DNA of 42,831 nucleotides from an uncultured Gammaproteobacteria bacterium (GTDB taxonomy: Bacteria; Patescibacteriota; Patescibacteriia; Patescibacteriales; UBA12465), in contig CAYGOK010000003.1 in NCBI GenBank assembly GCA_964351585.1, forward strand, positions 10,043-52,873, in the 5' to 3' direction. Under the pieces are notes generated by a model that searched no databases, was not told the origin of the DNA, and saw only the letters and a program-made list of their open reading frames with translations. Positions 1-39,500 of this stretch are shown here, one piece after another (positions within the stretch are counted from its first letter, which is position 1; each line of letters starts with the position of its first letter). The position numbers were made by a program, and so were the translations under genes.

Positions 1-629
1 CTCACTTCTTCAATCTTGCCAATTCTTTTTAAATCACGAACAATCATCGCCTTTAGGCTGCCGCAAAATAATCCAGCTGGGCAATCGCTATCAACTACGC
101 AATTCTTAGGTTCTTTAAGTAAACAAGTACCATTAGTTAGCGAGCAGGCCTGATTAGAAGGACATTCGGAGTCCTGTGCACACTTGGTTACCGAGATAGA
201 GCAGGTTGATACCTGGGAAGATAAATTATCATTAAACTTCCAATGAGAAATAATCTGTCCCAAAATATCGGTAGTCATGCTGCTAGAATCTTGATTATAT
301 GAAATCAGATAAATATTGGTATAGATTACTTTTTGAGCCGGGTCAACGTGGGCGGCATTTATATAAACTGTACGTCCATCGCGTAATGCTTCATAGCCAT
401 CAACAGTTAGGGCCTGAGGTGCTCCAGAAAAACCCTGGCTCTGATACCAGCGGTAAACACTGTAGTGGTTGGGATTAGGAATGATACGAATACCAATCGC
501 ATCACTCTCTGTTGTGGGCTGTGCAGCAACGGGATTGTCAGAAGAAAGCAAAACCCCGAAAAGCAAAAGGGCGGTAACAGCCACTAGGCCGACTAACCCT
601 TTCAATTTATTAAATTCTTGATTGACCAT
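1..629 (-). CDS. Secreted Cys-containing protein, N-terminal part only (3' end runs off the left edge); third gene of the surface-protein cluster
   Basis: Not in the ORF track because it is open-ended. My translation from ATG at 629-627: MVNQEFNKLKGLVGLVAVTALLLFGVLLSSDNPVAAQPTTESD...CSISVTKCAQDSECPSNQACSLTNGTCLLKEPKNCVVDSDCPAGLFCGS... The frame stays open to position 1. It has a hydrophobic signal/anchor followed by CxxxxC-type Cys spacing. It starts 10 nt downstream of the stop of the 1928-aa gene. Confidence 0.6.
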   Translation of the reverse strand, partial: MVNQEFNKLKGLVGLVAVTALLLFGVLLSSDNPVAAQPTTESDAIGIRIIPNPNHYSVYRWYQSQGFSGAPQALTVDGYEALRDGRTVYINAAHVDPAQKVIYTNIYLISYNQDSSSMTTDILGQIISHWKFNDNLSSQVSTCSISVTKCAQDSECPSNQACSLTNGTCLLKEPKNCVVDSDCPAGLFCGSLKAMIVRDLKRIGKIEEV

Positions 630-639
630 AAAGAAAAAA

Positions 640-3600
640 TTATCTAACCACACAAGCGCCTGCGACACAAACTTGATTATCGGCACAGGTTATCTTGGAA
701 ATTGTTATTTCATTTGATTTTGCACTTTCATTGCCGGCTGCATCTAAGGCGGATAAAGCAAAGTAATTATCGCCACTACTTAATTGACCAGCGGATAAAG
801 TTAAAGCAGTTGCCCCCTGTTCAGAGTCAAAGGATTCTCCGTATAAAGTGCTACGCGTGCCTCGATAGAGACGAAACGAGGAAGCACTAGTATCGGTGCT
901 CGTCCAATTAAAGCGATAGGAATCACATTTGTTGATTGAAGTTAAGTTAGCCGGAGCTAAAGGCGCCGTTTGATCTGTCGGCGTGGCTGACTTAGTATTA
1001 CTCAACGTACTTTCCGTACGATTGTTAGAAATAACGGAAACACGGAAAGAATATGGTTGATTATTTTTTAAGCCAGAAATAGTGGCAGCGCAAGCAAATT
1101 CTGATCCACCCCAATCACAAGCATCGGCTGCTGTAAACTCTCTAGAAACAGTCGCTGATTTTCCAGTCTCACCATAATAAATTTTAAAACCAACTGACTG
1201 AGCGCTACTGGATTTCCATTCAACTAAAATCTCTCCTCCTGTTTTTTTATCAGTGGCCGCCGTTACTTCTCCGGCTGGCAAAACTGCCTCTCTAAAGAAA
1301 TATGATTCTTTAAGAACGTTCCAAACACAGATGCCATCAGGTAAGCCGTCGCCGTTACGATCATCTCCACAAGAAGAGCCAGCGGCTGAACAAACTGAGC
1401 CATCAGAGCTACAAGCTAAATTAGTGCTCTGTCCTCTAATAACAGCTCTATCAATAATTGCCGGCAAATCATCAAATGTGCCAGGCTGGCCGGCGTCGCG
1501 ACAATAATAAAACTTATAACTAAAGTCCGTGCAAGGCCCACCTAAAGCACCGGTACAGGTATCTGTCCACGGAAACCAGGTGCCATCAATATTAACTGGT
1601 GGCCAAGGATTATTACAAACAAAGACATAGATATTGCTCGCACTAGAAGAATCGTCACCCGTAGAAAAAGCATTGGCACAATTAGCTGTACACTTATCAT
1701 CAGCGCAGACACAGCTTGGACTATAATCTGGATTACTAAGGAAGCGCTCCATGCTAACAGTCGCTGTTAATTTTGTTTCTCCATCAGTAACGCCATTTGC
1801 CGCCGCAACAAAAGCACGATTCATTTCTAAACCATTAACATTAGCAATGGTCACGACTGCGGTATCAAGGACGTTGAAATTCCAGTCCCAGAAATATCCA
1901 GTTACCGGATGCAAAACTTGGCTATCCGCACTAAGCGCCCAAGCAGCAAATACCTTGTCTTTATCTTGAATGGTGTCAAAAGTCTTGTCTAATGGGTTAT
2001 CATCTTTTTCAGCCAAGCTATTATCGGTAGTCTTAAATAAATAAGATACAGGCAACAATCTTACTTGACTGATAGCGCAGACACCAGAATTTTCAGCCTT
2101 ATCAGAAAGTGTTTTAAACTGAATGATATGAGAATTTTTATAATATGTAGTATTAAAAGCTAAGCTTGCCCCCTCAGTTCCGTCCAGGCCCGTTCCATTA
2201 AAGCCAATTCCCTCAATATTAGTTACCCCCAATTGACTATTCAGTTCTTCGTCACCCTTAACAACTAGAAAATAATTGGTATCTGGAGACATTAACTGCC
2301 TAGGCATGACATTAGCCACTGTTCTTTGGCCAGCATGACTACCAGAAACAGCAACCGGAGAAGCACAGTATAGCTTACTAGGGTCCGGAGGGACGGCAAT
2401 CGCGCTTTCATTTTTTGGAAAAAATACGGCCACCACCTGATTCACTGACCTTCTAGCGCTCGAAAATACCCTGGCTAACCAGCCCTCTTTTTTAACTTTA
2501 CCTTCAAAATCATAGGCCATGGTTCCTGCCGGACAAACGCCAGTACCATAATCCATTTCTCTAAGTAGTAAAATATTGGAATTGAAAGTAGCAACATCCA
2601 TTAACTGATCAAAGGTAATATTTAATACTGCATTGCGACAAACATTACTAGCGCCATTAATCGGCAGAGTTTCTATTACATTCGGTCTGGCCTGACAGCA
2701 AGTATCAAAGCCGCAGCCCAATGTTTCGGCATTACCACAATCGCCATCATTCTTACAGCCACAACATAATCCGCGACTAGCACCAGAACAACTTCCTTGA
2801 TCAGCCTTACAATACAAATATGGCGCCTCGGCAGTTTTACAAGCATTAACATCAGTTGGGCTACAGCAACAAGTGCCACAATCAGAAATACCTGTAGCCG
2901 TTGCTCCGCTATCCGTCATGCAGGCCATGTTTGGAAAATTACAAATACTAAAATCACAAGTTGCCGTCATATAAGGAGAGGAGCAATTTTTTCCAGCCCC
3001 ACCATAATTGCCACCGCAACGATCTTGGCAAGTAGTTAAGCTATTGAATGTTCCGGTTGTTCTTGGGATAGCCTCGCAAGTTGCCGGATCTCCTGGAGGC
3101 GTAGCTGCTGGATCACCACAATTATAATAGGCGCAATAACCAGCATCAGCACCAGACGCAATCTGTTCTCCTCCTTGGCACTTAGAAGATGTTTGATTAA
3201 AACAACAAGAAGGAGCGGCTGAACATTCATCTTTATTACCATCAAACAAAGAACAGAAATCAACTCCCTCAGCACAGCCGGTTGTGCAAGTGTCTGTGTT
3301 TTTAAAATAACCAAGCTTAACCGGAGTTGAAGAGGCGCAAGTCGCCGGGTCAGTCGCTGAACAGTTAAAATAACCGCAATAGCCATAATCTGGACTAGCT
3401 GGATCAGAAGAAATTTCTGTGCCCGAACCACCACGACAAATATCATCATCTAAAGATGGGGTTCGTCTAGAATCAAAGCAACAAGCTGCGCTATGATCAG
3501 CACAAGTTGACTGCGTTTTTAAACCAGTACAATCTGAACAAACGCCCTGCGGATTTTCAGCGGTAATGCTGCAATATTGTCCGCCTCGACCAGCACAATT

Positions 3601-6426
3601 ACAGGCAGCGTCATGCTCAGCTTGAGTAGTGCCGACATTAGCACAACCAGAACATTGCCCTAAACCAGCGCCATCATCAGCCTGATCATTACCACAGGTA
3701 CCGGCACATTCTAAAGGAGCACAACAATCTTGAGCACTATTACCAATACGACAACAGCAATCACAACTCGGCGCGTCATAAGCAATACAACGATCAGCGG
3801 CCGCTAAATCAGGATTATCTTCGCAAACTGAACCAGCCGGACAAACCGACCTAGAAACACAACGACCATCAGTTACTACCCTTTCACAAACCAATCCATC
3901 AGTACACAAACTACAAGTTGAATTTTTATCAACACAAATATTATTTACGCCTCTCTCCCAATTATCTGGGCAAGATGTTTGAGTAGAGAATTGCCAGTTG
4001 CCCTCCTGATTACAAGCTACTGTAACCTCAATACTCTGACCACCTAAAGCAAAGGTTTTCTTTTCCGATAAACTACACAAACCATCGGCCCCAGATTTTA
4101 CGCATTTATTAATAGAGGCATCGTAAAAACAAGCTGATGGAAAAGCATTACAGCCGACTACTGAGGCACAAGAATAATCGCAACTACCTACTACTTTTTT
4201 ATTATTTCCTGCATAAGGAGAACAAACGCCGGTTGTATTTGGACAGAATGAACCAACCTGACATGCGCCAGCGTAGGCCGCTAAAGTAGCACAGCTCTCA
4301 GTTGGATCAACTACATCTTTTTTGGCATAGCCAGTACTAAAATTCCATTCAAAAACTGAAGTAGGAATATCAATTAAACAGTCACTTAAACTAGCAACGC
4401 AGCGTCCTTTCTTATAAGTATTAGCTGGACAACAAACTTGTCCGCCTTCACAATTTTCATTAGTAGTACAACTACCAACTTCAAAATTAAGCTCATTGCC
4501 CCATTCGCCATTCTTTACAACTTTAACCGGACCAGTGATAGCCCCTTCAGAAACAGCTGTTGTAATTATATCGGCACCATTTTCTTGACTGATTAAACCT
4601 GAGGTATTTTTATTAACATTAAATTGAACTAAACCATTTTGTCCAACTGACCCAAAGTATTCTCCATAAAGCTTAACGGGCGTGGACACCGCGCCCTGCT
4701 TCGGTTCAATCTTGCACAAGCTAGTCTTTAGAGATAAGGCACTATCAACATTAAAAGAATTGGGGTTAAGCTGGCTAGTATCAATTGTTCCGCTGGCCAA
4801 TTCTACACGAATATAATGATAACCATTAACAGCTGAGGCTGGGACCTTAACAATAATTTGGTTATCACTCCAGACTGAGCTAGCGCAAACTGGTGGAAAT
4901 GCGTAATCAGCTTCAGCGCTTCCAAAGTAAACTTTAGAGTTGCCACGCGCACCACCAAAGCCACTACCAATAATAGTGACGTATTGTCCGGTGCGGCCAC
5001 TATTAGGAGAAAAAGAAACAATAAAGGGCCCATCTCTAGGATCAGACTCTTTGTTAAAATATAGATAATTACTTTTTTCCTGATTACCGCCTAAAGTACT
5101 AATAACAAAACTAGTGGCTTCACCAGATCTTACATTAGGAACACCGGCTGTGCCCGATAGACCGCTGGGATGGCTAAAACCAGAGTTAAGGGCCTGAACA
5201 TTAGTCTTATAACTACCAAAATAAGCTTTACCAGAATACAAACTAATTCCTTGATAAGTCGCTATGGCTCCTAAGCCACCCTGGCTAGGAGTTAATTTAC
5301 ATAAGCCCGGCCTAACTATACTATTAGAAACAAAATCTGGCACCCTGGGACCGTATTCATCATTAGTAGCATCTTCTTTTCCGTCTTGACGAGAAATTTT
5401 AATAGCTCCATTACTGGCGCCTGAAGGAATGGCAATAATAATTTGTTTGTCACTCCAAGAATCAATACAAATTGGATTAATCTCCGAAGGACTGCGTCCT
5501 ATCTGATTTCCACCTAAGAAAACAACCTGACTTAAAACAGGATCATATTCTCCAAAACCCTGACCGAAAATTGTTAAAAAATTATCAGCAGCGCCATTAG
5601 GAGTGTTTTGATTACAGACCGTATTACAACCAGCATCAGTCTGGCAAGATTTATTAATATCTTCCTCACAAAAACCACCTACCGGGCTGATCCCGGTAAT
5701 AACTGGCGGACCAGAGCAGGTGCAAGTATCGGCATCACAAGTCAAAAACTCAGCGCACAAACTATTGTTCGCATCACAAGTCGGCGTACTCTCATCAGCA
5801 TCACAAGAATCACCAGCGGCACCACGCGGCTGACAAGTACAATCAGTCGCACAATAATCCTGAGGCGCACAAATATTATCATCTGCCTGACAACCACCTA
5901 AAATAGAATTGGAATCACAATATTTTTCTGCCGGGTAGCTCGTACAATCAGAGCCGACACAGCCTCCCCAGGAACCAGCTGTACACAACATTGCACCATT
6001 ACAACCACAGGGCCGAGTTGAGCCCTCAATACAGCCACTATCGCCGCCCGTACCACGAGTAGCGTCACTTAATCTATCTAAAACAAAAGAAGCAATTGCC
6101 CAGGACGATAAAATAATTCCTAAACCAATAACTGCGCTAACTAACAATTTTTTAGCTTTAGAAATTTTTTCTTCCTCTCCGGCTGACGTCATCCACAGAA
6201 ATCCAGCATAGATAATCAAGCCCAAGGCGATGACACCCAGTAATCCCAAAGCAACATTAATAATACGAGCAACAATAGCACGTGGATCACTAGTTGATAA
6301 TGAGCCTCCTAGACCAGACGAAACTTCATCAGTACCGAAATTTTGCGCAAAAACTAATCGAAAAGCAAACACTCCGACAAGGATTACGGCAAAAGAAGCT
6401 AGTTGTTTAAATATTCTCTTAGACAC
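640..6426 (-). CDS. Giant (1928 aa) cysteine-rich cell-surface protein: VirB2/TrbC-like pilin-type N-terminal anchor, about 4 IPT/TIG-like domains, a roughly 590-aa hyper-Cys region, an Ig-like (Big_5/SbsA-type) domain and 2 C-terminal FN3 domains
   Basis: Uninterrupted 5.8-kb ORF with an apparent GTG start at 6426. N-terminus: signal peptide (..RLVFAQ|N), then DPRAIVARIINVALGLLGVIALGLIIYAGFLWMTSAGEEEKISKAKKLLVSAVIGLGIILSSWAIASFVLDRL (two TM helices around a charged loop). IPT-like segments, e.g. GPFIVSFSPNSGRTGQYVTIIGSGFGG...IIVKVP. FN3-like segments, e.g. GEILVEWKSS..FKIYYGE..YSFRVSV and PANLTS..YRFNWTS..FRLYRG..YFALSALDAAGNES. About 126 Cys by hand count. Confidence 0.85.
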   Translation of the reverse strand: MSKRIFKQLASFAVILVGVFAFRLVFAQNFGTDEVSSGLGGSLSTSDPRAIVARIINVALGLLGVIALGLIIYAGFLWMTSAGEEEKISKAKKLLVSAVIGLGIILSSWAIASFVLDRLSDATRGTGGDSGCIEGSTRPCGCNGAMLCTAGSWGGCVGSDCTSYPAEKYCDSNSILGGCQADDNICAPQDYCATDCTCQPRGAAGDSCDADESTPTCDANNSLCAEFLTCDADTCTCSGPPVITGISPVGGFCEEDINKSCQTDAGCNTVCNQNTPNGAADNFLTIFGQGFGEYDPVLSQVVFLGGNQIGRSPSEINPICIDSWSDKQIIIAIPSGASNGAIKISRQDGKEDATNDEYGPRVPDFVSNSIVRPGLCKLTPSQGGLGAIATYQGISLYSGKAYFGSYKTNVQALNSGFSHPSGLSGTAGVPNVRSGEATSFVISTLGGNQEKSNYLYFNKESDPRDGPFIVSFSPNSGRTGQYVTIIGSGFGGARGNSKVYFGSAEADYAFPPVCASSVWSDNQIIVKVPASAVNGYHYIRVELASGTIDTSQLNPNSFNVDSALSLKTSLCKIEPKQGAVSTPVKLYGEYFGSVGQNGLVQFNVNKNTSGLISQENGADIITTAVSEGAITGPVKVVKNGEWGNELNFEVGSCTTNENCEGGQVCCPANTYKKGRCVASLSDCLIDIPTSVFEWNFSTGYAKKDVVDPTESCATLAAYAGACQVGSFCPNTTGVCSPYAGNNKKVVGSCDYSCASVVGCNAFPSACFYDASINKCVKSGADGLCSLSEKKTFALGGQSIEVTVACNQEGNWQFSTQTSCPDNWERGVNNICVDKNSTCSLCTDGLVCERVVTDGRCVSRSVCPAGSVCEDNPDLAAADRCIAYDAPSCDCCCRIGNSAQDCCAPLECAGTCGNDQADDGAGLGQCSGCANVGTTQAEHDAACNCAGRGGQYCSITAENPQGVCSDCTGLKTQSTCADHSAACCFDSRRTPSLDDDICRGGSGTEISSDPASPDYGYCGYFNCSATDPATCASSTPVKLGYFKNTDTCTTGCAEGVDFCSLFDGNKDECSAAPSCCFNQTSSKCQGGEQIASGADAGYCAYYNCGDPAATPPGDPATCEAIPRTTGTFNSLTTCQDRCGGNYGGAGKNCSSPYMTATCDFSICNFPNMACMTDSGATATGISDCGTCCCSPTDVNACKTAEAPYLYCKADQGSCSGASRGLCCGCKNDGDCGNAETLGCGFDTCCQARPNVIETLPINGASNVCRNAVLNITFDQLMDVATFNSNILLLREMDYGTGVCPAGTMAYDFEGKVKKEGWLARVFSSARRSVNQVVAVFFPKNESAIAVPPDPSKLYCASPVAVSGSHAGQRTVANVMPRQLMSPDTNYFLVVKGDEELNSQLGVTNIEGIGFNGTGLDGTEGASLAFNTTYYKNSHIIQFKTLSDKAENSGVCAISQVRLLPVSYLFKTTDNSLAEKDDNPLDKTFDTIQDKDKVFAAWALSADSQVLHPVTGYFWDWNFNVLDTAVVTIANVNGLEMNRAFVAAANGVTDGETKLTATVSMERFLSNPDYSPSCVCADDKCTANCANAFSTGDDSSSASNIYVFVCNNPWPPVNIDGTWFPWTDTCTGALGGPCTDFSYKFYYCRDAGQPGTFDDLPAIIDRAVIRGQSTNLACSSDGSVCSAAGSSCGDDRNGDGLPDGICVWNVLKESYFFREAVLPAGEVTAATDKKTGGEILVEWKSSSAQSVGFKIYYGETGKSATVSREFTAADACDWGGSEFACAATISGLKNNQPYSFRVSVISNNRTESTLSNTKSATPTDQTAPLAPANLTSINKCDSYRFNWTSTDTSASSFRLYRGTRSTLYGESFDSEQGATALTLSAGQLSSGDNYFALSALDAAGNESAKSNEITISKITCADNQVCVAGACVVR
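2931..3483 (-). repeat. Two tandem, diverged Cys-rich repeat units of about 80-92 aa inside the giant gene
   Basis: Unit 1 starts at CCFDS (3483) and unit 2 at CCFNQ (3207). Shared skeleton: CCF..C.GG...GYC.Y(F/Y)NC...DPATC...G.F...TC...C. Unit boundaries are approximate. Confidence 0.6.
6070..6426 (-). repeat. Copy 1 of the paralogous N-terminal signal peptide plus two-TM pilin-like module (see 8752-9099)
   Basis: Residues 1-119 of the 1928-aa protein align without gaps from DPRAI to LDRL with the 887-aa protein. Roughly 70% aa identity by eye, with clear nucleotide similarity (e.g. tatgc.gg.tt..tgtggatgac). Confidence 0.8.
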
Positions 6427-6435
6427 AAGTTTATA

Positions 6436-9099
6436 TTATTGGCAGTTGCCATTTTCATCTAAATTATTAGAAGGAGATCCAAAACAACAAGATGGATTTT
6501 CCCAAGTAGCCTCACAGCTTGGACCTGAACTAGGTTTAAAACAATTTTGATAAACGTCTTTAACACCAGAGCCGGCCTGAGAAATATAAGAAAGTGATTC
6601 TGAAAATAAAGAATGTTTAATCTGGGCTACTGTTAAGTCAGTCACACCGTCTAAAGGAGAAACGTCCTTGTCCTCAGAGGTTATCCAATAACCCAGGGGA
6701 GAGGCAGCAGCACTCTTCAAATTAATGAATTTATGCTCCGTAGCAGTCTGACCATTATTCAAAATTTTGCTACCAGACCTAAGTGTACTAGACATCATTA
6801 AGGTATTAAAAGTAATTTCCACCGGATCAGTTAAAGCGGTAATGTCTGTTTGTCCATTGTTTGGCGTAATAGCGGTAATGCGTGGCGAAGATAGCTCTTT
6901 TTGGTCATTAACAAAGAAGGAGAAGCGGTAACTATCTTTATTATCAACTACACCATTATTCTCATTGAAATAAGAGATTGGCCCATCAGCCGCAGTATCA
7001 CGATTACCATCTAAAGAATTGAAGGCGGTATCAGTAATGCCACTCATCGTTGCAATGTTGGCCAGTGGATAGTTTCTCTGTCCTGCGTCTTGGCAGGTAC
7101 GATAACCGAGCGGGCTCATAACACAAGATCTATAAGGACTAAAGGCGGCGCAATCTTGATCGCTCGCACAAGTTTTTAAATCTGCAGCTTTAATTTCTAG
7201 AGCTAAGTTACTATTTGGCGGCAAACAATAAACCTTTTCACCGCAACCATTAATTCCACATTCATTATCAGAAATAAATTCAACTGTTTTGTAACCATTA
7301 GAAATCATAAACTGTCCATTTACATAACTGCCGACGCAGGAACCGCCGTCACATTTATAGGAAAGGCATTCGGAATTGATAGCACAAGCAGTGCCAGCTG
7401 ATTTGCCGCCATTAGCATTTACTAAACGAATATAAGAAGACACGTCGCTAGCGGAACCAGAAAGCGTAGCTGGGTTCATGGCCTCATTAAAGGTCACCTT
7501 GATGGCCGCGTTCATTGGCACATCTTTCTTATCATTAATAACATAGGTAATTCGTTGATCAGCGCCACCAGAAAACTGGGTTAGACCAAGAGCGCTACTA
7601 TTACTAGTGCTGAGGGCTAATCCATTAGCAGCGCTTCCGGCTACTTTAGCCGTCAATGAAACACGACTACCGGTACGAGTTACGTTCACATCGGGGTGGC
7701 CGCTTAACTTAGCCTGGATATCAGCCGCTTGATTATCCGCATTGCAGGTACCAGTCCGAACGATAATATTATTATTTTCACCAGTAGCAGCAAAGACATA
7801 TTTAACATTGCCAACCGTTAGAGTGTCGGCCAATTGTTCAGGGGTAATTTCTATTTCCCAGGAATTACCAGCAGCATGACTATCGGCTTTTAAGCTAAAA
7901 TATCCATCAAAAGTTACTCTATGGTCGGAAGTAAAATCAGCCACGCCCAATAAGGCATTAGTGTTACGATTAAATAGTTGGGCACGATTAGGCTCGTCCG
8001 CTGGGACGGAAACCATGAAACGATTTATTACGCCATGATAATCTAATGTTACCTCGGCTCCCGGGGTAACTCGATTTAACACAGCTGGTATATATACTCT
8101 TGGACAACCATTAACAAATATTTCTGCAGTTGCGTTAGCTGAGACAGTGCTCACCCCAATTTGATCTTGAAGATTATCAGGGCGAGGAAATATAGAACGA
8201 GCAACCACTTGTGGCGGGGTTAAATCTAAACGAGAACCAACTTCAAAACCCCAAACAAGCTCACTTGCGCTACAGGTTCTAAACATAGAGGAGCCATCTG
8301 CCTTCTTTAAATCTGAAGTTATTTTTACGGCATAATCAGTATTAGCCTCTGCTGAACCAAGATAGCTTAAAGGAGAAAATATCAGTGTTCTCTTATCGGC
8401 TGATATAGCTACAGCGACATCGGTAACATTAGAATTTGGGTTTGGACAGTTAACACCACAGGCATCATTTAATTCCTGCTTATATATTCTAATTGTCTTA
8501 GGATTAATTAAAGAGCAGGCGCCATTATCACAAGCGCAAGGACTGCCACCAGCATCCACACAAGCAGAAGCGGCATCAATTTCTTCTTTAAAAGTAACAA
8601 TTATAGAAGTATTTCTAGGTACATCACGCTGATTGCTTTCTGGGTAAACAGTTTGAACTGAGCAGGAGCCAATAGCCCCTAAACCAGCACTAAAATTATT
8701 TCCTGAATAAGCTCCAGGTTGATTAACGCCGTTACCAGAGATAGCACTCATTAATCTATCTAACAAGAAGGTGGTAATTGCCCAAGAAGATAAAATAATC
8801 ACTAAACCAATAACTGCGTTCTTAAGAATATTTTTTGCATTTCTAATTTTCTCCTCTTCGCCGCCAGAAGTCATCCACAAAAAGCCGGCATAGATTATTA
8901 AGCCAAGAGTAACGACACCAAGTAAGCTTAAGGCGACCTGAATAATACGCCCAATAATAGCTCGTGGGTCACTAGAAGACAAAGCGATTGTGCTTTCAAT
9001 CGGATCTAAACCGAAATCTTGCGCTAGAGAGATTTTAGCAGTCAGCAAAACTACTGATGCCAAAAAAAAGCCGAAAATTATCTTGAATCTTTTCAACAT
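6436..9099 (-). CDS. Large (887 aa) secreted surface protein: VirB2/TrbC-like pilin-type N-terminal anchor followed by several Ig-like (Big_5/SbsA-type) domains and Cys-knot-like segments
   Basis: ATG at 9099. N-terminus: MLKRFKIIFGFFLASVVLLTAKISLAQ|D...DPRAIIGRIIQVALSLLGVVTLGLIIYAGFLWMTSGGEEEKIRNAKNILKNAVIGLVIILSSWAITTFLLDRL. Repeated pattern 'P..g..dVp.n..I.vtF.e.m...t', e.g. VYPESNQRDVPRNTSIIVTFKEEID, NDKKDVPMNAAIKVTFNEAMNPATL and ITPNNGQTDITALTDPVEITFNTLM. About 30 Cys. The stop lies 9 nt before the next gene. Confidence 0.85.
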   Translation of the reverse strand: MLKRFKIIFGFFLASVVLLTAKISLAQDFGLDPIESTIALSSSDPRAIIGRIIQVALSLLGVVTLGLIIYAGFLWMTSGGEEEKIRNAKNILKNAVIGLVIILSSWAITTFLLDRLMSAISGNGVNQPGAYSGNNFSAGLGAIGSCSVQTVYPESNQRDVPRNTSIIVTFKEEIDAASACVDAGGSPCACDNGACSLINPKTIRIYKQELNDACGVNCPNPNSNVTDVAVAISADKRTLIFSPLSYLGSAEANTDYAVKITSDLKKADGSSMFRTCSASELVWGFEVGSRLDLTPPQVVARSIFPRPDNLQDQIGVSTVSANATAEIFVNGCPRVYIPAVLNRVTPGAEVTLDYHGVINRFMVSVPADEPNRAQLFNRNTNALLGVADFTSDHRVTFDGYFSLKADSHAAGNSWEIEITPEQLADTLTVGNVKYVFAATGENNNIIVRTGTCNADNQAADIQAKLSGHPDVNVTRTGSRVSLTAKVAGSAANGLALSTSNSSALGLTQFSGGADQRITYVINDKKDVPMNAAIKVTFNEAMNPATLSGSASDVSSYIRLVNANGGKSAGTACAINSECLSYKCDGGSCVGSYVNGQFMISNGYKTVEFISDNECGINGCGEKVYCLPPNSNLALEIKAADLKTCASDQDCAAFSPYRSCVMSPLGYRTCQDAGQRNYPLANIATMSGITDTAFNSLDGNRDTAADGPISYFNENNGVVDNKDSYRFSFFVNDQKELSSPRITAITPNNGQTDITALTDPVEITFNTLMMSSTLRSGSKILNNGQTATEHKFINLKSAAASPLGYWITSEDKDVSPLDGVTDLTVAQIKHSLFSESLSYISQAGSGVKDVYQNCFKPSSGPSCEATWENPSCCFGSPSNNLDENGNCQ
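8752..9099 (-). repeat. Copy 2 of the paralogous N-terminal pilin-like module
   Basis: Residues 1-116 of the 887-aa protein. See 6070-6426. Confidence 0.8.
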
Positions 9100-9157
9100 T
9101 TTTTCCCAGGAGGTCTTTAAAAATACTCCTTTTAATGCTATACTTTATTATGCTTTT

Positions 9158-9166
9158 ATTATAACA
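9158..9166 (-). promoter_or_regulatory. Candidate extended -10 promoter element (TGTTATAAT) for the surface-protein operon
   Basis: The plus strand reads attataaca, so the minus strand reads TGTTATAAT, about 59 nt upstream of ATG 9099. It lies in the 93-nt divergent intergenic region shared with the rel gene. Confidence 0.4.
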
Positions 9167-9192
9167 TAAGCATGGCAAAATAAAAACTATTT

Positions 9193-10656
9193 ATGACCAT
9201 AGAACGGATCATCAAAAAATTTACTGACAACAATCCGGGAGTAGACGCTAGCATCCTAGAAAGAGCTTTTCTTTTTGCTGATGCCGCTCATACAGGGCAG
9301 CTACGAAAAAATGGTGAGCCTTACATTCAACACCCATTACACACCGCTTATATTCTGGCGGAAATTCGCGCCGATCTACCAACTGTAGCCGCTGGTATTC
9401 TTCATGATGTTCCCGAAGATACTGAGAGAACCCTAGAAGAAATAGAGATGGAGTTTGGCGCTGAGATTGCCAGTCTAGTAAAAGGCGTAACCAAATTAAG
9501 TAAAATTAAATATCGTGGCATTGAGCGTTATCGAGAAAATCTTAAGAAAATGTTTCTCGCAATTACCAGTGATTTACGTGTTGTTTTTATTAAGTTTTGT
9601 GATCGTTTAAATAATTTGCGCACGCTTGATTCTTTGCCGCCGGATAAAAAAAGAAGAATAGCAGCAGAAACCCTGGAGATCTATGCTCCTGTTGCTGGCT
9701 TACTAGGAATCGAACGTCTTAAATGGCAAATGGAAGATATCTGCTTTAAGCATCTCTTTCCTGAAAAATTCAATGAGCTGGAGTATAAATATGAAGTGGA
9801 AAAAAAAGTTGAAAGACAACGTTTTTTTCAAAATGTACGTGGTGTTTTAAAGCCAAAACTTGAAGAAGCTGGCATAAATTATGAAATCGAAGCGCGCTTC
9901 AAACATCTCTACAGCATCTTTAAAAAGATGCAAGAAAAAGATAGAAAATTCAACGAAATTTATGATGTATTTGCCATGCGCATTGTTGTTCCCACTATTG
10001 ACGATTGCTATAAAGTATTAGGTGTTATTCATACTATTTGGAAACCAAAACCGAACCGCTTTAAAGATTATATCGCTGTTCCTAAGCCAAACGGCTACCG
10101 ATCACTACACACTACTATTTTTGGCCCCGAAGGCAAGCCAACCGAATTTCAAATTCGTACCAAAGAAATGCACGAAGAGGCTTTATACGGTATCGCCGCT
10201 CACTGGTACTACAAATCTAAGGGCAATAACGACGCCTATCAGCAACCACGCTGGATTAAGGAAATTGTTGATATTCAAAAAGAAATTACTAATACCTCTG
10301 AGTTGGTAAAGAACGTAAAAATGGATATTTTTCGCGACCGCATTTTTGTCTTTTCGCCCAAAGGAGACGTTTTTGAGCTACCAGAAAAATCTACTCCCAT
10401 TGATTTCGCGTATGCAATTCATGGCAATGTCGGCAACAAAGCCTCTGGTGTATTAATCAATGATAAACTTGGACGTCTTGACCAGGAATTAAAAAATGGC
10501 GACATGGTAGAAATAATTATTGAAAAAAATCGTCAACACCCAAATAAAGACTGGATAAAATTTGTTAAAACTAAACGTGCCCGTGATCAAATTAAGCAAC
10601 ATGCAAAAAAATCTACCCTCGAAAACATCAAGCGCTTAATTCCGGGAATGAAATAA
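9193..10656 (+). CDS. rel: RelA/SpoT-homolog (p)ppGpp synthetase/hydrolase, short form (HD + synthetase + TGS domains; no C-terminal ACT/RRM region)
   Basis: HD motif: HPLHTAYILAE...ILHDVPEDT. Synthetase motif: PKPNGYRSLHTTIFGPEGKPTEFQIRTKEMHEEALYGIAAHWYYK. TGS motif: IFVFSPKGDVFELPEKSTPIDFAYAIHGNVG...NGDMVEII. The protein ends about 45 aa after TGS. Confidence 0.9.
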   Translation: MTIERIIKKFTDNNPGVDASILERAFLFADAAHTGQLRKNGEPYIQHPLHTAYILAEIRADLPTVAAGILHDVPEDTERTLEEIEMEFGAEIASLVKGVTKLSKIKYRGIERYRENLKKMFLAITSDLRVVFIKFCDRLNNLRTLDSLPPDKKRRIAAETLEIYAPVAGLLGIERLKWQMEDICFKHLFPEKFNELEYKYEVEKKVERQRFFQNVRGVLKPKLEEAGINYEIEARFKHLYSIFKKMQEKDRKFNEIYDVFAMRIVVPTIDDCYKVLGVIHTIWKPKPNRFKDYIAVPKPNGYRSLHTTIFGPEGKPTEFQIRTKEMHEEALYGIAAHWYYKSKGNNDAYQQPRWIKEIVDIQKEITNTSELVKNVKMDIFRDRIFVFSPKGDVFELPEKSTPIDFAYAIHGNVGNKASGVLINDKLGRLDQELKNGDMVEIIIEKNRQHPNKDWIKFVKTKRARDQIKQHAKKSTLENIKRLIPGMK

Positions 10657-10664
10657 AGATGTTA

Positions 10665-10705
10665 ACACAAAAAACGCCCCCATTTGGGGGGCGTTTTTAT
10701 TTTAT
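10665..10705. terminator. Bidirectional rho-independent terminator between convergent rel and rpsU
   Basis: aaaaaaCGCCCCC-attt-GGGGGGCGttttt: GC stem (10675-10681 / 10686-10693) flanked by an A-run and a T-run. Confidence 0.7.
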
Positions 10706-10717
10706 AGAAGCAAAAAT

Positions 10718-10948
10718 TTATCTTCTGGTAGTTTCTGGAAGTTTGCCGGTCTTGCGCAAAAATTCATTTTTCTTACTCAATGCTAACCCTGACAAAGCGC
10801 GTTTTTTGAAAATACGCTTGGTCTGTTTTGGTTCCAAATGCTGTTTGGATCGGGCTTTATCCAGCCTTTTGCTGTTTTTTAAGCCTTTCTTAAATTTTCT
10901 GAGAAAGCCTTCAAAACTTTCTCCTGGTTTTCTTTTGAAATCAGCCAT
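10718..10948 (-). CDS. rpsU: 30S ribosomal protein S21
   Basis: 76-aa basic protein. GESFEGFLRKFKKGLKNSKRLDKARSKQHLEPKQTKRIFKK matches the S21 pattern (ESLEDALRRFKR...AR.R.FYEKPS.KRK.K). Its ATG overlaps the hisS stop (TAATG). Confidence 0.7.
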   Translation of the reverse strand: MADFKRKPGESFEGFLRKFKKGLKNSKRLDKARSKQHLEPKQTKRIFKKRALSGLALSKKNEFLRKTGKLPETTRR

Positions 10949-12315
10949 TAGAATACACCTCCCTTTCTAAGACTTAGTTTTTTATCATATCTGTCCTTGC
11001 GTGACAGCCTTTCTTTAACCTTTTTAAACACTAGGGTTTCTTGAGCGCCGGAATCTACGTCTCTCATAAGAATAGTTCCGTCCATTATTTCTTTTTTACC
11101 TAATATTAAACAAGTTGTTGCTTTAATGGCAGTCGCCTCCTCAATTTGGAACTTTAGACTATCAGAAGCTAGAGCTTGTCTAACGTTAAAACCGGCTTTA
11201 CGCAAATCTTCAAATAGCTGCAGAGCTTTCAGTTTTGCCTGATCGCCGAGCTGAGCAATGAATACTATATCTTGTTCAGTCTTATTTGTCAAAGCTTGCT
11301 TATCTTTAATACGACCGATAGTTCTTTCGATGCCAATAGCAATTCCAGAAGCTGGTGCGGCTTGTCCACCCAGACTCTCAACCAAGTTATCATACCGACC
11401 ACCGCCTGCTAAAGCTAGGCGACCAACACTACCATCATCATTAACCGGCCAGAATTCAAAAACAATATCATTATAATAATTTAAACCACGAACTAAATAC
11501 GGATTGAAGTTGTAGCTAATATTGAGTTCATCTAAAAATTCCAAAGTCTTGGCCAAGTATTCACGACTGGCATCAGATAAAAAGTCAGCAATCTGTGGCG
11601 CTTCTTCTCTTAACTTTAAACAAGACTCTTCTTTGCAATCTAGTAAACTTAAACAATTCTTGCCTAAACTATTTTTACAGGCATTACACAATTTAGAACG
11701 ATGTCCTCTTTCTTTGTAAAAATTAAATAACTTAGCACAATAGTTCTTACGACACTCAGCGTCTCCCAGGCTATTAATCTGTAGCTGGGCTTTAACCTGC
11801 ATCTCTTCAAAAAAATTATTAGCAATCATTATTAGAACCGCTTCTGCCATTGGTTTTTTATCACCAATAATTTCTAAATCAAATTGAGTTGATTCTCGAT
11901 AGCGACCGCTCTGCAACTTCTCTCTACGAAAAATAGAGCCAATCGAAAACAAGCGAGCAGTTTTCATCTCTGCTTGCAAACCATTCTCTAAATAAGAGCG
12001 CACAATTCCCTGAGTAATCTCTGGGCGCAAAACAGTTTTTTCTCCTTTCTCCCCCTCAACAGCATAAACTTCCTTATCGCTCTCGCGTCGAGATGATTTT
12101 TTATATAAATCAAAGCTCTCTAAAATCGGTGTTTTTACAGGAGAGAAACCGTAAAGTTGGGCTAAGTGATTAGCTTTTTCTACAGCTAGATCAAAACAAG
12201 CCTGTTCAACGCCAGAAAAATCTTTCATCCCCAAAAGACGACCCGGAGTCTTATCATTCTTTCTTTCTGTTTTAACGACCGGAGACTCGGACGCACCTTT
12301 CTTCCTTCTAGGCAT
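10948..12315 (-). CDS. hisS: Histidine--tRNA ligase
   Basis: Class II motifs: LRPEITQGIVRSY, FRREKLQSGRYRESTQFDLEIIG and GGGRYDNLVESLGG, plus a C-terminal anticodon-binding domain. It carries a basic N-terminal extension of about 27 aa. Confidence 0.9.
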   Translation of the reverse strand: MPRRKKGASESPVVKTERKNDKTPGRLLGMKDFSGVEQACFDLAVEKANHLAQLYGFSPVKTPILESFDLYKKSSRRESDKEVYAVEGEKGEKTVLRPEITQGIVRSYLENGLQAEMKTARLFSIGSIFRREKLQSGRYRESTQFDLEIIGDKKPMAEAVLIMIANNFFEEMQVKAQLQINSLGDAECRKNYCAKLFNFYKERGHRSKLCNACKNSLGKNCLSLLDCKEESCLKLREEAPQIADFLSDASREYLAKTLEFLDELNISYNFNPYLVRGLNYYNDIVFEFWPVNDDGSVGRLALAGGGRYDNLVESLGGQAAPASGIAIGIERTIGRIKDKQALTNKTEQDIVFIAQLGDQAKLKALQLFEDLRKAGFNVRQALASDSLKFQIEEATAIKATTCLILGKKEIMDGTILMRDVDSGAQETLVFKKVKERLSRKDRYDKKLSLRKGGVF

Positions 12316-12346: not shown

Positions 12347-12928
12347 CTAATTAGAAACTATTTCTCCGTACTGCGGCCAATAATTCCGATCGAAAAGAGT
12401 TACACGACTAAAGGGCCAGCCACGAAATAATACTTTACCGGTAATAAAAGCTTTATCAACTGGACCGAAGCTGCGAGAATCTTTAGAGGCAGGGCGATTA
12501 TCCCCGAGCACAAAATACTCATTATCACCCACCTTAATTAGAGACTCACTATTATCATAAGTCCCCAAACCATCTGGTAAGTATACTTCATTAAGCACCG
12601 TGCCTTCAGGATATAAAGCGTTAAATATTTTTACCCGACCATCTTTTATTTGCACTTCCTCTCCCGGCAAACCAATTATGCGCTTAATAAAGTATTCTTG
12701 TGGATCCTTAGGATAGCGAAAAACAATAACTTGTCCACGGGTCGGCTCATTAAAGCGATAGCTAATTTCATCAATAATCAAATACTCATGATCGTGAAAA
12801 TTTGGCTCCATTGAAGCTCCTTTAACATAAAACGGCTGAATCAAATAGTAGCGCACCGGCAAAATAATAGCCAAAGAAATACTAACAACTTTAATTATTT
12901 CCCAAACGAAAAGAAAAAATTTACGCAT
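12347..12928 (-). CDS. lepB: Signal peptidase I
   Basis: N-terminal TM helix. Catalytic Ser box GASMEPNF, the Lys region in the segment RIIGLPGE, and GDNRPASKDSR. Confidence 0.9.
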   Translation of the reverse strand: MRKFFLFVWEIIKVVSISLAIILPVRYYLIQPFYVKGASMEPNFHDHEYLIIDEISYRFNEPTRGQVIVFRYPKDPQEYFIKRIIGLPGEEVQIKDGRVKIFNALYPEGTVLNEVYLPDGLGTYDNSESLIKVGDNEYFVLGDNRPASKDSRSFGPVDKAFITGKVLFRGWPFSRVTLFDRNYWPQYGEIVSN

Positions 12929-35601: not shown

Positions 35602-36576
35602 ATGTTTTCTTATCGCGCACTCTTACAACAAGCCTGGAAAATTACCTGGGATTACAAAACTCTTTGGCTTTTTGGAGTTTTTGCCTCAATCGCGGCCGCT
35701 AGTGGCTCCTTTGAGTATCAAATTTTGGTTAATAATTTCCAAAATGGAGTTCTAGAAAGCTCTTACTATCACTTAGGCATGTTTTTATTAATTTTAAAAA
35801 CTATTGGTGGCTTTATTCTTGGCCTAATTAATCTTTTTTCCTACAATATCCTTGATATTATCAACACGCTAACTATCCTAATTATTACAGGGACAATTAT
35901 TGCTTCTTTTGTCTGGTTGTCTATCACTTCTCAAGGAGCTTTAGTGTTAAACGCAAAAAAATTAATTGCAACTAAGAAAAAGTCCGAAAACATTGATATT
36001 AAAGAAAGTTTTGCGCAGGGCAATAAATATTTCTGGCAAATTCTTGGATTTAACGTTTTAGCAAAGTTTGCTATTGCCGTAATTCTATTCTTAATCAGCC
36101 TACCTCTTGTCTTCTTAGCCAGCAAAGCCTCTGATTTACTATCCTCTTTATATACTTTAGCTTTTATTATTTTTATACCATTAGCGATTGCTGCTTCCTT
36201 AATCTTAAAATATGCAATTGCCTACTTAGTATTAGAGGATGAAAATTTTTGCTCAGCTTTTAAAAAATCTTGGCGCCTATTTATCAAAAACTGGTTAGTT
36301 AGTGTAGAAATGGGCATTATTCTGTTCTTGATTAGCTTCTTGGTTGGCATCGTTCTACTTGCACTAATGTCTGTCTTCATCTTCCCTTACTTCATTTTTG
36401 CGCTAGACTACGGAGTGGGCTGGTTAATGATAACCTTAGCTCTTATTACTTTCTTCTTGCTACTGATTAGCAGCGCGATTTTATCAACTTTCCAAATTTC
36501 CGCCTGGACTGGCTTATTCTTAGATTTAAAGAACAATCGTGGCTTAGCCAAGCTTGAGAGACTATTTAAAAAATAA
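35602..36576 (+). CDS. Polytopic membrane protein (about 7 TM helices), unknown function; first gene of the operon
   Basis: Hydrophobic segments throughout. N-terminus: MFSYRALLQQAWKITWDYKTLWLFGVF. No GspF/PilC motifs. The stop lies 8 nt before the ATPase gene. Confidence 0.7.
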   Translation: MFSYRALLQQAWKITWDYKTLWLFGVFASIAAASGSFEYQILVNNFQNGVLESSYYHLGMFLLILKTIGGFILGLINLFSYNILDIINTLTILIITGTIIASFVWLSITSQGALVLNAKKLIATKKKSENIDIKESFAQGNKYFWQILGFNVLAKFAIAVILFLISLPLVFLASKASDLLSSLYTLAFIIFIPLAIAASLILKYAIAYLVLEDENFCSAFKKSWRLFIKNWLVSVEMGIILFLISFLVGIVLLALMSVFIFPYFIFALDYGVGWLMITLALITFFLLLISSAILSTFQISAWTGLFLDLKNNRGLAKLERLFKK

Positions 36577-36584
36577 CCTTTATT

Positions 36585-39500
36585 ATGAATCCAGTTGATT
36601 CAATAGAAAATCTGATAAACCCTACAGGCGACGAACAAAGCGTCGCCGGTATTTTTGCTAAAAAGCAAAGGGAGATAAAACAGAAAGAAGCAGAAAGACA
36701 AACTCAGCGCGATGCCTCTGATGTTGCTTTAGAATATATAAATCTATTCGGATTTCCCATTAGCCCCGAGGCACTAGGTCTAATCAGTGAAGAAAGAGCC
36801 AAAGAACTGAAGGCGGTCTGTTTTTTTTATGATGGACACAATTTACGTCTTGCCTGCTTAGCTCCTACTGAGGAAGTCTTAGCCGAACTAAAAAACTTAT
36901 CAGACAAGCACTTTGCTAACGCTAAGCTATATTTAATTTCTGAAAATAGCTTAAGTTACGCTCTAGACGCCTATCGCGCTGTTCCAAAAGTAAAAAAATA
37001 TGATAGCGGAGTAGAAATTAGTAAAGTCCAGCTACAAAAATTTAAAGACGACATTACTAGCTACAAAAGCTTAAATGATAAGATTAACGAAGTTAATATT
37101 ACCGATGTAATCACTTTAATGCTCGCAACCGCGATTAAGGTGGGAGCAAGTGATATCCATATTGAAGCCGAGGAAAGAGGCGTGGTAATTCGCATCCGTA
37201 TCGATGGCGTTCTCCAGGAAGCAGCAGTTATTGCCCGTGATAAGTGGCAAAAAATTATTTCTCGTCTAAAAATTCTTTCTAAGGTAAAGCTTAACATCGA
37301 GAACAAACCGCAAGACGGTCGCTATACAATTTTTCTTCAGGATCATAAAATCGATGTCCGCTGTTCATTTTTACCGACCGCCTTTGGCGAGAGCGTAGTC
37401 ATGCGCTTACTTGATTCTCATACTTCCGCTCTTAATTTAAGCAAGCTTGGAATACGAGCAGAAGTTATGCCGATTTTGCAAAAAGAAATTTCAAAGCCAA
37501 ACGGTTTAATTTTAACAACTGGCCCAACCGGTAGCGGTAAAACTACTACGCTATACTCTGTCTTAAGCCAGCTCAACAAACCTGGTAACAAGATTATCAC
37601 TTTAGAAGAGCCCATTGAATATCAACTTCCTGGCATCAATCAAAGCCAAGTCGACGCTAAGCATGGTTTTAATTTTTCCGAAGGCTTGCGTTCTATTTTA
37701 CGACAAGATCCAAACATCGTTATGGTTGGAGAAATTCGTGATTTAGAAACAGCCGAGATTGCTATTCAAGCTGCTCTAACAGGACACTTAGTGCTGTCCA
37801 CTTTACACACCAACGATGCTTCTGGTGTTATTCCTCGCATGATTGATATTGGAGTTAAGCCTTATTTTCTAGCCCCAGCGGTTAATGCTGTCATTGGTCA
37901 GCGTTTAGTTAGGCAATTATGCACTCACTGTCGACAAGATAAAACGATTACCCCAGATGAAGAAGAATTAATTTACAAGATTCTGGCTGTTATTTCTCCT
38001 AAGGCCGGCATTAACGTACCATCAGCGCTTCCTAAAATTTTTCAATCAGGTGCTGGCTGTGAACACTGTAACTTCACCGGCTACAGTGGTCGCTCTGGTA
38101 TTTTTGAAATTTTTACAATTAGCGATAATATCCGCCAATTAACGATTGATAATGCCCCTTCGTTTAAAATTTTACAACAGGCTATCGAAAACGGCATGAT
38201 AACTATGCTACAAGATGGCGTCTTAAAAGTTTTAGAAGGTGAAACCAGTCTTGAAGAAATTTATCGTGTCATTGGCAATTTCGACTATGTAAATGAGCTC
38301 TATGATATTGTTATTTCTCAAACTATTGGCCGCGGTATTAGAATAAAAGAAGAGGAGATGAATGAAATTACTGAAATCGGCAAAGACATTTTAAATATCG
38401 GTGACCGCGCTAATCAAATCCCGAGCTCAAAATTAGTTGCCCTCACTATGGGATTAGCTGTTTTACGTGATGCTGGCGATGTTCACATTGAACCAACTGA
38501 AAGTGATGTAAAAATCCGCTTCCGTATCGATGGTATTATGCATGATGTTTTCTCAGTACCTAAAACTAGTTACTTGCCATTACTCTCAGAAATAAAAATT
38601 TTGGCCGGTACGCCAACTAACGTAAAGAAGGCAACTTTTGATGGTCGTTTTAGTATTTATTTACCACCAAATAGAAAAATCGATTGTCGTTTATCAATTA
38701 TTGCCGGCGGTTATGGCGAAACAATCGTTGTCCGCTTACTCTCTTCCTCGGCTGCTAGCTTAGAGCTTCCAAAGTTAGGCGTTTCTTCGGTTGCCCTTGA
38801 ATCAATGGGTCGCGCCATGAAGAAAAATCGTGGCATTATTATTACTACTGGTCCAACCGGTAGCGGTAAAACCACGACGCTCTACAGTATGCTCAACCAA
38901 TTAAATCATCCTGATGTAAAAATTATTACTGTCGAAGATCCAATTGAATATCAGCTCGCTGGCGTTATGCAAACCCAAATCGATGAAGCAAACGGCTACA
39001 CTTTTGCCTCAGCGATGCGTTCCTTATTACGTCAAAACCCTAATATCATGATGATTGGTGAAATCCGTGATAATGAAACCGCTAAGATTGCGATTGAGGC
39101 CGCGATGACTGGTCATTTAGTATTATCCACTATTCATGCCAATTCTGCTGCAGGAGCGATTTTCCGTTTTGCTGGTCTTGGTGTAGAAAGACAAATGCTT
39201 GCTAACTCAATGGAGTTTGCTATTGGCCAGCGCCTAGCTAGACGTCTCTGTCCTCATTGTAAACAGACTACTGAAATATCGTCTGAGAATTTAACTCGTG
39301 TTAAAGAAATTCTAAGCGGCATTAAAAACCCAGCAGTTTCAATTCCAGAGCAAATGACATTTTATAAGAGTGTCGGTTGTGAGCAGTGCGGACAAATTGG
39401 CTACAAAGGTAGAATCGGTTTATATGAAACTATTGAGTTAACACCTAACATCCGCAAACTAATGCAATCGGAAGGCATTACCGAATATGAAATTGAACAA

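Follow-up and report, generated by a model that had tools for sequence, protein, structure and literature searches.

Why would two adjacent genes for giant surface-type proteins both begin with a module that resembles the pilin of a type IV secretion system (T4SS)? The question is raised by a 42,831-nt stretch of DNA (the window) from an uncultured, ultra-small bacterium (GenBank GCA_964351585.1, contig CAYGOK010000003.1, forward strand 10,043-52,873) whose GTDB lineage is Bacteria; Patescibacteriota; Patescibacteriia; Patescibacteriales; UBA12465. Protein A, the 887-aa product of an open reading frame (ORF) at window 6436-9099 on the minus strand, is followed on the same strand by protein B, the 1928-aa product of ORF 640-6426, and the B start codon lies 9 bases past the A stop codon. 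On balance, and with confidence slightly better than even, we favour the view that A and B are co-transcribed, co-conserved surface proteins tethered by a pilin-like helical hairpin, and that these hairpins associate specifically and display immunoglobulin (Ig)-rich, disulfide-bonded ectodomains.

A T4SS_pilin-family module at the start of two giant proteins

The N-terminal ~125 residues of A and B share 59% identity across 127 aligned residues (E 5e-46), and outside this region the two proteins show no alignable similarity. Window 8752-9099 (minus strand) codes for residues 1-116 of A, and 6070-6426 (minus strand) is the 5′ start of the B ORF. A preliminary description of this DNA had called residues 1-116 of A and 1-119 of B paralogs; this assignment and its coordinates are borne out, and the DPRAI...GEEEKI...-type motif that it quoted is present in both proteins. 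The two genes are divided as follows:

9022-9099, minus strand: signal peptide of A, residues 1-26, with a likely signal-peptidase I site S-L-A↓Q (hydropathy, model, conservation).
8971-9021, minus strand: short N-terminal stretch of mature A, predicted to be extracellular, residues 27-43 (QDFG...; conserved F29 and G30).
8872-8970, minus strand: DPR motif and transmembrane (TM) helix 1 of the A hairpin, residues 44-76 (PF18895 match 47-112; AlphaFold2 helix 45-76).
8830-8871, minus strand: charged loop TSGGEEEKIRNAKN of A, residues 77-90, predicted to be cytoplasmic (turn 77-81 in the models; invariant residues).
8749-8829, minus strand: TM helix 2 of the A hairpin, residues 91-117 (hydropathy; AlphaFold2 helix 82-120; invariant residues).
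8683-8748, minus strand: Gly/Ser/Asn-rich flexible linker of A, residues 118-139 (predicted local distance difference test (pLDDT) 31-49; no conserved motif).
6436-8682, minus strand: ectodomain of A, residues 140-887, and stop codon (Pfam Big_5, AlphaFold2, Foldseek).
6067-6426, minus strand: signal peptide and paralogous pilin-like hairpin of B, residues 1-120 (PF18895 match residues 52-115, window 6082-6273).
640-6066, minus strand: ectodomain of B, residues 121-1928 (TIG, Big_5 and fn3 domains; 126 Cys).

Both modules pass the gathering score of PF18895 (T4SS_pilin; 26.6 bits), A with 46.6 bits (residues 47-112) and B with 35.2 bits (52-115), and all 38 diverse modules of this subtype match the same family. 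On this profile evidence, the module is a member of the T4SS_pilin family, as the preliminary description had suggested. Its further appeal to PF04956 (TrbC/VirB2) stands only indirectly: A and B have no match to that family at E <= 0.1 (gathering score 27.9 bits), and the links run in register through relatives and are weaker. Specifically, PF04956 matches 18 of the 38 related modules at E <= 1 (best 2.1e-5), which exceeds any unrelated membrane family, and tandem-module relatives pass its gathering score with 83.8 and 144.6 bits. A VirB2/TrbC reference profile was made from Agrobacterium VirB2, checked by its 100% identity to annotated virB2 on Ti plasmids, and eight TrbC/VirB2 proteins of MPF_T plasmids. 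Aligned with this profile by hhalign, the profile of the 38 modules gives a probability of 69% (P 4.4e-5) over 58 columns, and the register brings together the D-P motif before helix 1, the W-M that ends helix 1, the loop and helix 2. A remote homology of the module to classical VirB2/TrbC therefore appears likely.

The comparison with known proteins follows the same lines. A and B share with VirB2, TrbC and TraA the A↓Q-type site, the D-P before helix 1, the W-M at its end, the short loop and a Gly-rich helix 2; unlike them, they score below PF04956, belong to a monoderm organism and continue into a huge C-terminal extension past the point at which classical pilins stop or are trimmed. The cyclisation, lipid binding and pilus formation of VirB2/TrbC/TraA are not carried over to A and B. 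The closest NCBIfam model is NF045849, an 80-position model of a conjugal-transfer protein of integrative conjugative elements (Mbov_0395/MMCAP2_0565 of Mollicutes), which the two proteins match with 36.8 and 38.7 bits (E 2.4e-9 and 6.1e-10), below the 40-bit equivalog cutoff. The hairpin match is nearly full-length, spanning model positions 12-78 of 80, and the Mollicutes proteins likewise come from a monoderm setting, one of conjugation. NCBI labels A-family proteins either 'pilin' or 'Ig-like domain-containing protein'.

Modular type IV pilins such as Streptococcus sanguinis PilB/PilC combine an N-terminal polymerisation or anchor module with a bulky C-terminal adhesive domain, a design like that of A and B. 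They nevertheless form an unrelated class: Pfam gives no N_methyl (type IV pilin) match in A or B, which have neither a class III signal peptide nor an N-methylation motif, and their signal peptide is of type I and is followed by two helices, not one. Structure-based searches added little. A Foldseek search of the hairpin model against the PDB gave no match at E <= 0.001 and retrieved generic helical hairpins, none of the 50 matches listed being described as a pilin; since a helical hairpin is too simple a fold to discriminate, this search is uninformative about a VirB2 fold, not negative. Searches of PDB sequences with profiles of the A family and of the module returned only spurious matches, to repeats in designed 'Pizza' proteins.

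Predicted membrane topology and ectodomains of A and B

Each protein has three hydrophobic segments, all within its first ~117 residues: the signal peptide, TM1 (~50-76) and TM2 (~92-113). The signal peptide of A has its hydrophobic centre at residues 10-18 and forms a helix (2-24) in the AlphaFold2 model, and A26 is invariant in 61 homologues. By the -3/-1 rule, A would most likely be cleaved at S-L-A↓Q and B at V-F-A↓Q, and the mature proteins would therefore start with Q. The signal peptide of the preliminary description is thus retained, though not its 'AQ' ending, because the likely cut leaves the Q on the mature protein. In the mature N-terminal stretch, G30 is invariant and F29 nearly so, and a similar (D/N)(F/L)G...L recurs in many relatives. 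In line with hydropathy and with the earlier proposal of two TM helices around a short charged loop, AlphaFold2 models helices at residues 45-76 and 82-120 of A with a 5-residue turn between them, and the module modelled alone is a clean helical hairpin (pLDDT 85). In particular, loop residues S78, G80 and K84 and helix 2 residues I97, G98 and W106 are invariant in A homologues. The linker after helix 2 is disordered in the full-length AlphaFold2 model.

Beyond the linker, A is beta-rich, with three Big_5 Ig-like stretches (Pfam Big_5 1.7e-17), and its ectodomain is modelled with a pLDDT of 80-94 across about residues 140-700. Foldseek matched the A model best to two S-layer proteins, SbsC (4uj6) and Sap (6qx4, 9g93), which are likewise chains of Ig-like beta-sandwich domains; with E values of 8e-9 to 5e-5 and TM-scores of ~0.1, the similarity is one of domain type only. 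The B ectodomain carries TIG, Big_5 and fn3 domains (Pfam) and has no C-terminal anchor. Pfam detects no SLH or other wall-binding domain in either protein, so that, unlike the S-layer proteins, A would be anchored by its membrane hairpin. Cysteines number 26 in A and 126 in B, none of them within the N-terminal module, and many of those in the A ectodomain are invariant in homologues.

With a cleavable signal peptide upstream and extracellular-type domains downstream of the hairpin, we infer that the N-terminus of helix 1 lies outside, that the TSGG-EEEK-AK loop is cytoplasmic and that the C-terminal part is extracellular. This topology, which matches the extracellular placement of the large domains in the preliminary description, agrees with the Cys-rich ectodomains, the Big_5, TIG and fn3 domains and the S-layer-like Ig chain matches. 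In the mechanism that we propose, Sec would export A and B and the signal peptide would be cut at A↓Q. The hairpin, homologous to Patescibacteria VirB2-like pilins, would then sit in the cytoplasmic membrane with both ends outward and its acidic/basic loop in the cytoplasm, and the flexible Gly/Ser-rich linker would join helix 2 to a disulfide-rich Ig-like chain on the cell surface.

Conservation of the A/B pair and likeness of its hairpins

Conservation of the module reaches well past A and B, as had been anticipated: an exhaustive phmmer search with it found 28,575 representatives at E <= 0.001. That it is normally a stand-alone protein, as first described, holds in part, since 97 of the best 150 representatives are at least 300 aa long and 23 are at least 3000 aa. 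A and B themselves, with 770 and 1800 residues after the module, exceed the small stand-alone size of PF18895 proteins (~100-190 aa). In 200 long relatives the module is always N-terminal, starting at residue 22-77. The 79 long single-module proteins comprise 27 A-like, 35 B-like and 4 other proteins and 13 partial matches; a generic anchor joined to many different ectodomains was accordingly rejected, 75 of the 79 being A-like, B-like or partial matches.

The A family is tight, with at least 468 clusters at 90% identity, lengths of 870-920 aa, 49-85% identity and both PF18895 and Big_5 in all members. A-type relatives occur in 298 GTDB species genomes, for which the informative names are Falkowbacteria, Parcubacteria and Patescibacteria. 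In 80 fetched loci carrying A-type genes (the related loci), a B-type gene of 1500-2400 aa comes directly after A in 73. The surroundings are also fixed. Before A stand genes for a UvrD-type helicase, RuvB, QueA, signal peptidase S26, HisRS, a 76-aa S21-like protein and a divergent RelA/SpoT, and A is followed by B and then, in order, by genes for a ~1000-1200-aa secreted protein, a ~110-aa product and a TSP3_bac protein. At the same site, a Magasanikbacteria-like contig has S26, HisRS and an 81-aa gene, then a 756-aa A, a 4978-aa B and TSP3_bac genes; its label comes from the B protein, whose length equals that of a cluster member named Candidatus Magasanikbacteria. The fusion, which the preliminary description took to be unusual, is thus the defining feature of two protein families that are conserved and encoded side by side. 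An artefact of assembly or annotation was rejected, since dozens of independent assemblies show this architecture and this order of genes.

Within the A family, conservation is highest in the hairpin. Mean identity to the window protein is 71% for the hairpin (residues 44-117) versus 56% for the ectodomain, the majority-residue frequency runs from 0.81 in the helix 1 region (the highest) to 0.44 in the linker (the lowest), and the least conserved parts, signal peptide and linker, flank the hairpin. YAGF-WMTSGG-EEK-AK-NAVIGL is nearly invariant over 307 modules of all architectures. In addition, the hairpins of A and B are more alike within a genome (63.8% identity) than between genomes (54.7%), a difference reached by none of 10,000 permutations, and the same-genome partner hairpin has a median rank of third of 72. 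Simple divergence after an old duplication predicts equal A-B identity within and between genomes, which is not what is observed. The A and B hairpins are thus kept alike, which fits side-by-side packing or a common partner.

These data bear on whether the hairpin might be a passive two-helix anchor, descended from a pilin and left with no partner or assembly role. Such an origin would suit hairpin genes that are unlinked to T4SS genes and a fold search that yields generic helical hairpins only. However, anchors of this kind are normally poorly conserved, whereas here no part of the protein is better conserved than hairpin and loop, and within genomes the two hairpins co-vary; we therefore attach very little probability to a purely passive role. 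Because conservation peaks in the hairpin and because the two hairpins vary together from genome to genome, we infer instead a specific role. Like pilin subunits awaiting assembly, the hairpins of A and B would pack against one another, possibly joined by additional copies. The resulting membrane base would tether and organise a conserved envelope layer or host-contact structure in ABY1-class Patescibacteria, in which secreted partners encoded downstream would take part.

The first such partner gene enters the window at its edge:

1-628, minus strand: start of the third cluster gene, which begins 12 nt after the B stop codon and leaves the window (sequence read).

On reading its sequence, this gene has a signal peptide and no pilin-like hairpin, and its homologues, of 1000-1220 aa, come after B in 57 related loci. 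It is of interest for another explanation, in which the hairpin is a transient export or processing module and a cut behind helix 2 frees a secreted or wall-bound ectodomain, leaving a small mature pilin. TrbC loses 27 + 4 C-terminal residues, the last step being carried out by the LepB-like TraF, and TrhA is likewise C-terminally cleaved (PMC13434634), which sets a precedent for a cut just where the ectodomains of A and B begin. The junction is, moreover, a disordered and exposed linker, and the signal peptidase S26 gene keeps its upstream position in 58 related loci and in the Magasanikbacteria-like locus (L087:3221-3811). Nevertheless, the linker is the least conserved part and shows no conserved cleavage motif, the S26 gene has housekeeping neighbours (HisRS, QueA, RuvB) and may be an ordinary LepB, and export of the third gene product with a plain signal peptide indicates that a hairpin is not needed for secretion. 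Release of the ectodomains by such processing is in our judgement highly improbable.

Several further observations concern the locus and its relatives. In the window, the signal peptidase S26 gene is at 12347-12928 (minus strand), a few genes upstream of A and B. A 76-aa ORF at 10718-10948 (minus strand) shares 93% identity with the corresponding ORF of a Falkowbacteria chromosome, has a weak ribosomal S21 match (E 0.0013) and is found in 64 related loci; the 103-aa plus-strand ORF that overlaps it (10659-10970) has no Pfam match. Promoter and terminator scans over window 1-9400 stayed at chance level, and a tRNA search found no tRNAs. In one sub-lineage (L062, L071, L074, L075, L077), a ~350-aa gene takes the place of B behind an A-type gene of ~895 aa. 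Many A-family assemblies are titled 'uncultured Gammaproteobacteria bacterium' (TPA_asm metagenome-assembled genomes) and one 'Bacillota'; these titles look like mislabels, because the A/B order matches that of assemblies titled Falkowbacteria or Patescibacteria.

The module also occurs in tandem. Two-module proteins of 220-280 aa make up about 35 of the best 150 matches. Tandem modules are found in P0262, P0252, P0207 and about 45 other proteins, some of which are made up of little else: Pfam counts 6, 11 and 14 PF18895 stretches in three of them (up to 16 by phmmer), two of which also pass PF04956. P0262 (L088:10001-15328) adjoins ribosomal L39e and Csa1/Cas4-type genes, which suggests an archaeal genome.

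Relation to type IV secretion and possible roles of the hairpin

No VirB4, VirB6 or VirD4 domain was found among the window ORFs, as the preliminary description had reported for the corresponding genes. The sole secretion-type ATPase in the window is a 1004-aa protein at 36585-39599 (plus strand) that combines an MshEN domain with two T2SSE (GspE/PilB-type) ATPase stretches, as if a secretion or pilus ATPase had been duplicated within one polypeptide; its gene is preceded by that of a DUF7544-like protein (35602-36576, plus strand). In 79 of the 80 related loci, the surrounding ±10 kb contain no other pilin-module gene, and neither short pilins nor T4SS genes flank the A/B pair in these loci, where the neighbours are housekeeping genes. 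The nearest stand-alone relatives form arrays of 9-13 PF18895 genes (104-448 aa) without VirB4 within 10 kb (three loci, L084-L086). Two of these three arrays adjoin an SBP_bac_1 solute-binding gene, an NTP_transferase and an MGDG-synthase-type glycosyltransferase.

Published surveys describe Patescibacteria VirB2-like pilins as small proteins whose genes form arrays near virB4. Such pilins are essential in Southlakia, the one species tested, and count as an oddity in monoderms. The Southlakia epibionticum array SEML1_0014-0019 resembles A and B in its PF18895 family, in its order of signal peptide, helix, short loop and helix, and in coming from the same phylum-level host group. Its pilins are, however, small (the two annotated 'pilin' genes have 417 and 435 nt, and the PF18895 matches end by residue 180), and Southlakia and other Patescibacteria pilins stand in arrays inside or near the T4SS cluster, whereas A and B stand in a housekeeping neighbourhood without T4SS genes. 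The literature searched, including papers on the Patescibacteria T4SS survey, a 2025 T4SS review, Southlakia transposon sequencing, Vampirococcus and giant genes, does not describe pilin-module fusions, an absence that is no proof.

A and B could still be modular VirB2-type pilins whose hairpins are polymerised by an unlinked VirB4-dependent T4SS, most likely mixed with short pilins in a minor role or at the tip. Giant adhesins would in that case be covalently bound to the filament and would serve as the host-contact adhesin of the Patescibacteria T4SS. The homology of the hairpin to T4SS pilins and the high conservation of hairpin and loop are compatible with this, and the natural occurrence of 2 to 14 or more modules in tandem indicates that covalent linkage is tolerated. 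In solved conjugative pili, the joined termini of the cyclic pilins are exposed on the pilus surface (PMC13434634), and a C-terminal fusion would point outward in a filament too. Patescibacteria are monoderm (PMC12857230), so that no outer-membrane channel would block bulky subunits, and the T4SS survey found no PrgB-like adhesin in them (PMC12102498). Against such a filament speak two observations: within 10 kb, neither the window nor 79 of 80 related loci has a T4SS gene or a short pilin, and the experimentally studied T4SS pilin array of Southlakia consists of small pilins only. Moreover, the strong conservation and fixed length of A set it apart from variable pilins and adhesins, and a homopolymer with 770-1800 residues per subunit is sterically hard to envisage. 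Overall, we consider modular pilins of this kind rather unlikely.

For A and B as specifically associating, hairpin-tethered surface proteins, the points on the other side have to be set out as well. VirB4 is encoded somewhere in three of the four named A-carrying Falkowbacteria assemblies (Table S1, PMC12102498), and a T4SS able to extract the hairpins into a filament would thus be available. The TrbC/TrhA cleavage after helix 2 described above offers another fate for the junction, and the fold search with the hairpin alone retrieved no pilin. Five of the 80 loci carry A without an adjacent B (the remaining ones are incomplete or masked), so A need not have B beside it. The likeness of the two hairpins may also have a genetic cause: A-B codon identity rises only modestly, from 0.42 between genomes to 0.50 within them, and a 68-nt tract is identical between the A and B hairpins in one genome of 71 loci, a sign of gene conversion. 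Occasional conversion, older or patchy, could explain the A-B likeness just as co-adaptation or physical contact could. The hairpin-hairpin association, finally, is a putative one, read from sequence comparisons. All these points weigh against our interpretation.

The median longest identical A-B run in the 71 loci is 14 nt within genomes versus 11 nt between them. Recent gene conversion as the sole cause was rejected for this window, where third-position identity is 50% and 33 of the 56 identical residues have a common codon.

The preliminary description had left three roles for the module, namely a membrane anchor, a polymerisation handle and a cleavable export leader. Among these, the sequence-based evidence favours an anchor that would be specific and self-associating. 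We give more limited credence to a bolder version, in which A and B would be the first modular VirB2-type pilins and the hairpins co-assemble with each other and with short pilins through an unlinked T4SS, or form a T4SS-independent VirB2-like polymer, in either case bearing giant Ig-rich adhesins. If true, the co-assembled, envelope-spanning filament or lattice would be an adhesin or host-contact structure for the Patescibacteria T4SS, or would provide the surface-layer proteins of these cells.

The module, its family and the automated 'pilin' label are already known; the conserved A/B architecture, its separation from the T4SS and the concerted evolution of the hairpins appear to be undescribed. 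One consequence is a caution for annotation: a PF18895 match need not mean a T4SS pilus subunit, which matters, for example, for the reported dominance of PF18895 among freshwater-specific structure clusters. The finding has two possible meanings, either that these episymbionts have adapted a pilin fold into a specific membrane base of their surface architecture, or that they have pili with built-in adhesins. On either reading, A and B are concrete candidates for envelope or host-attachment structures of a large uncultured lineage.

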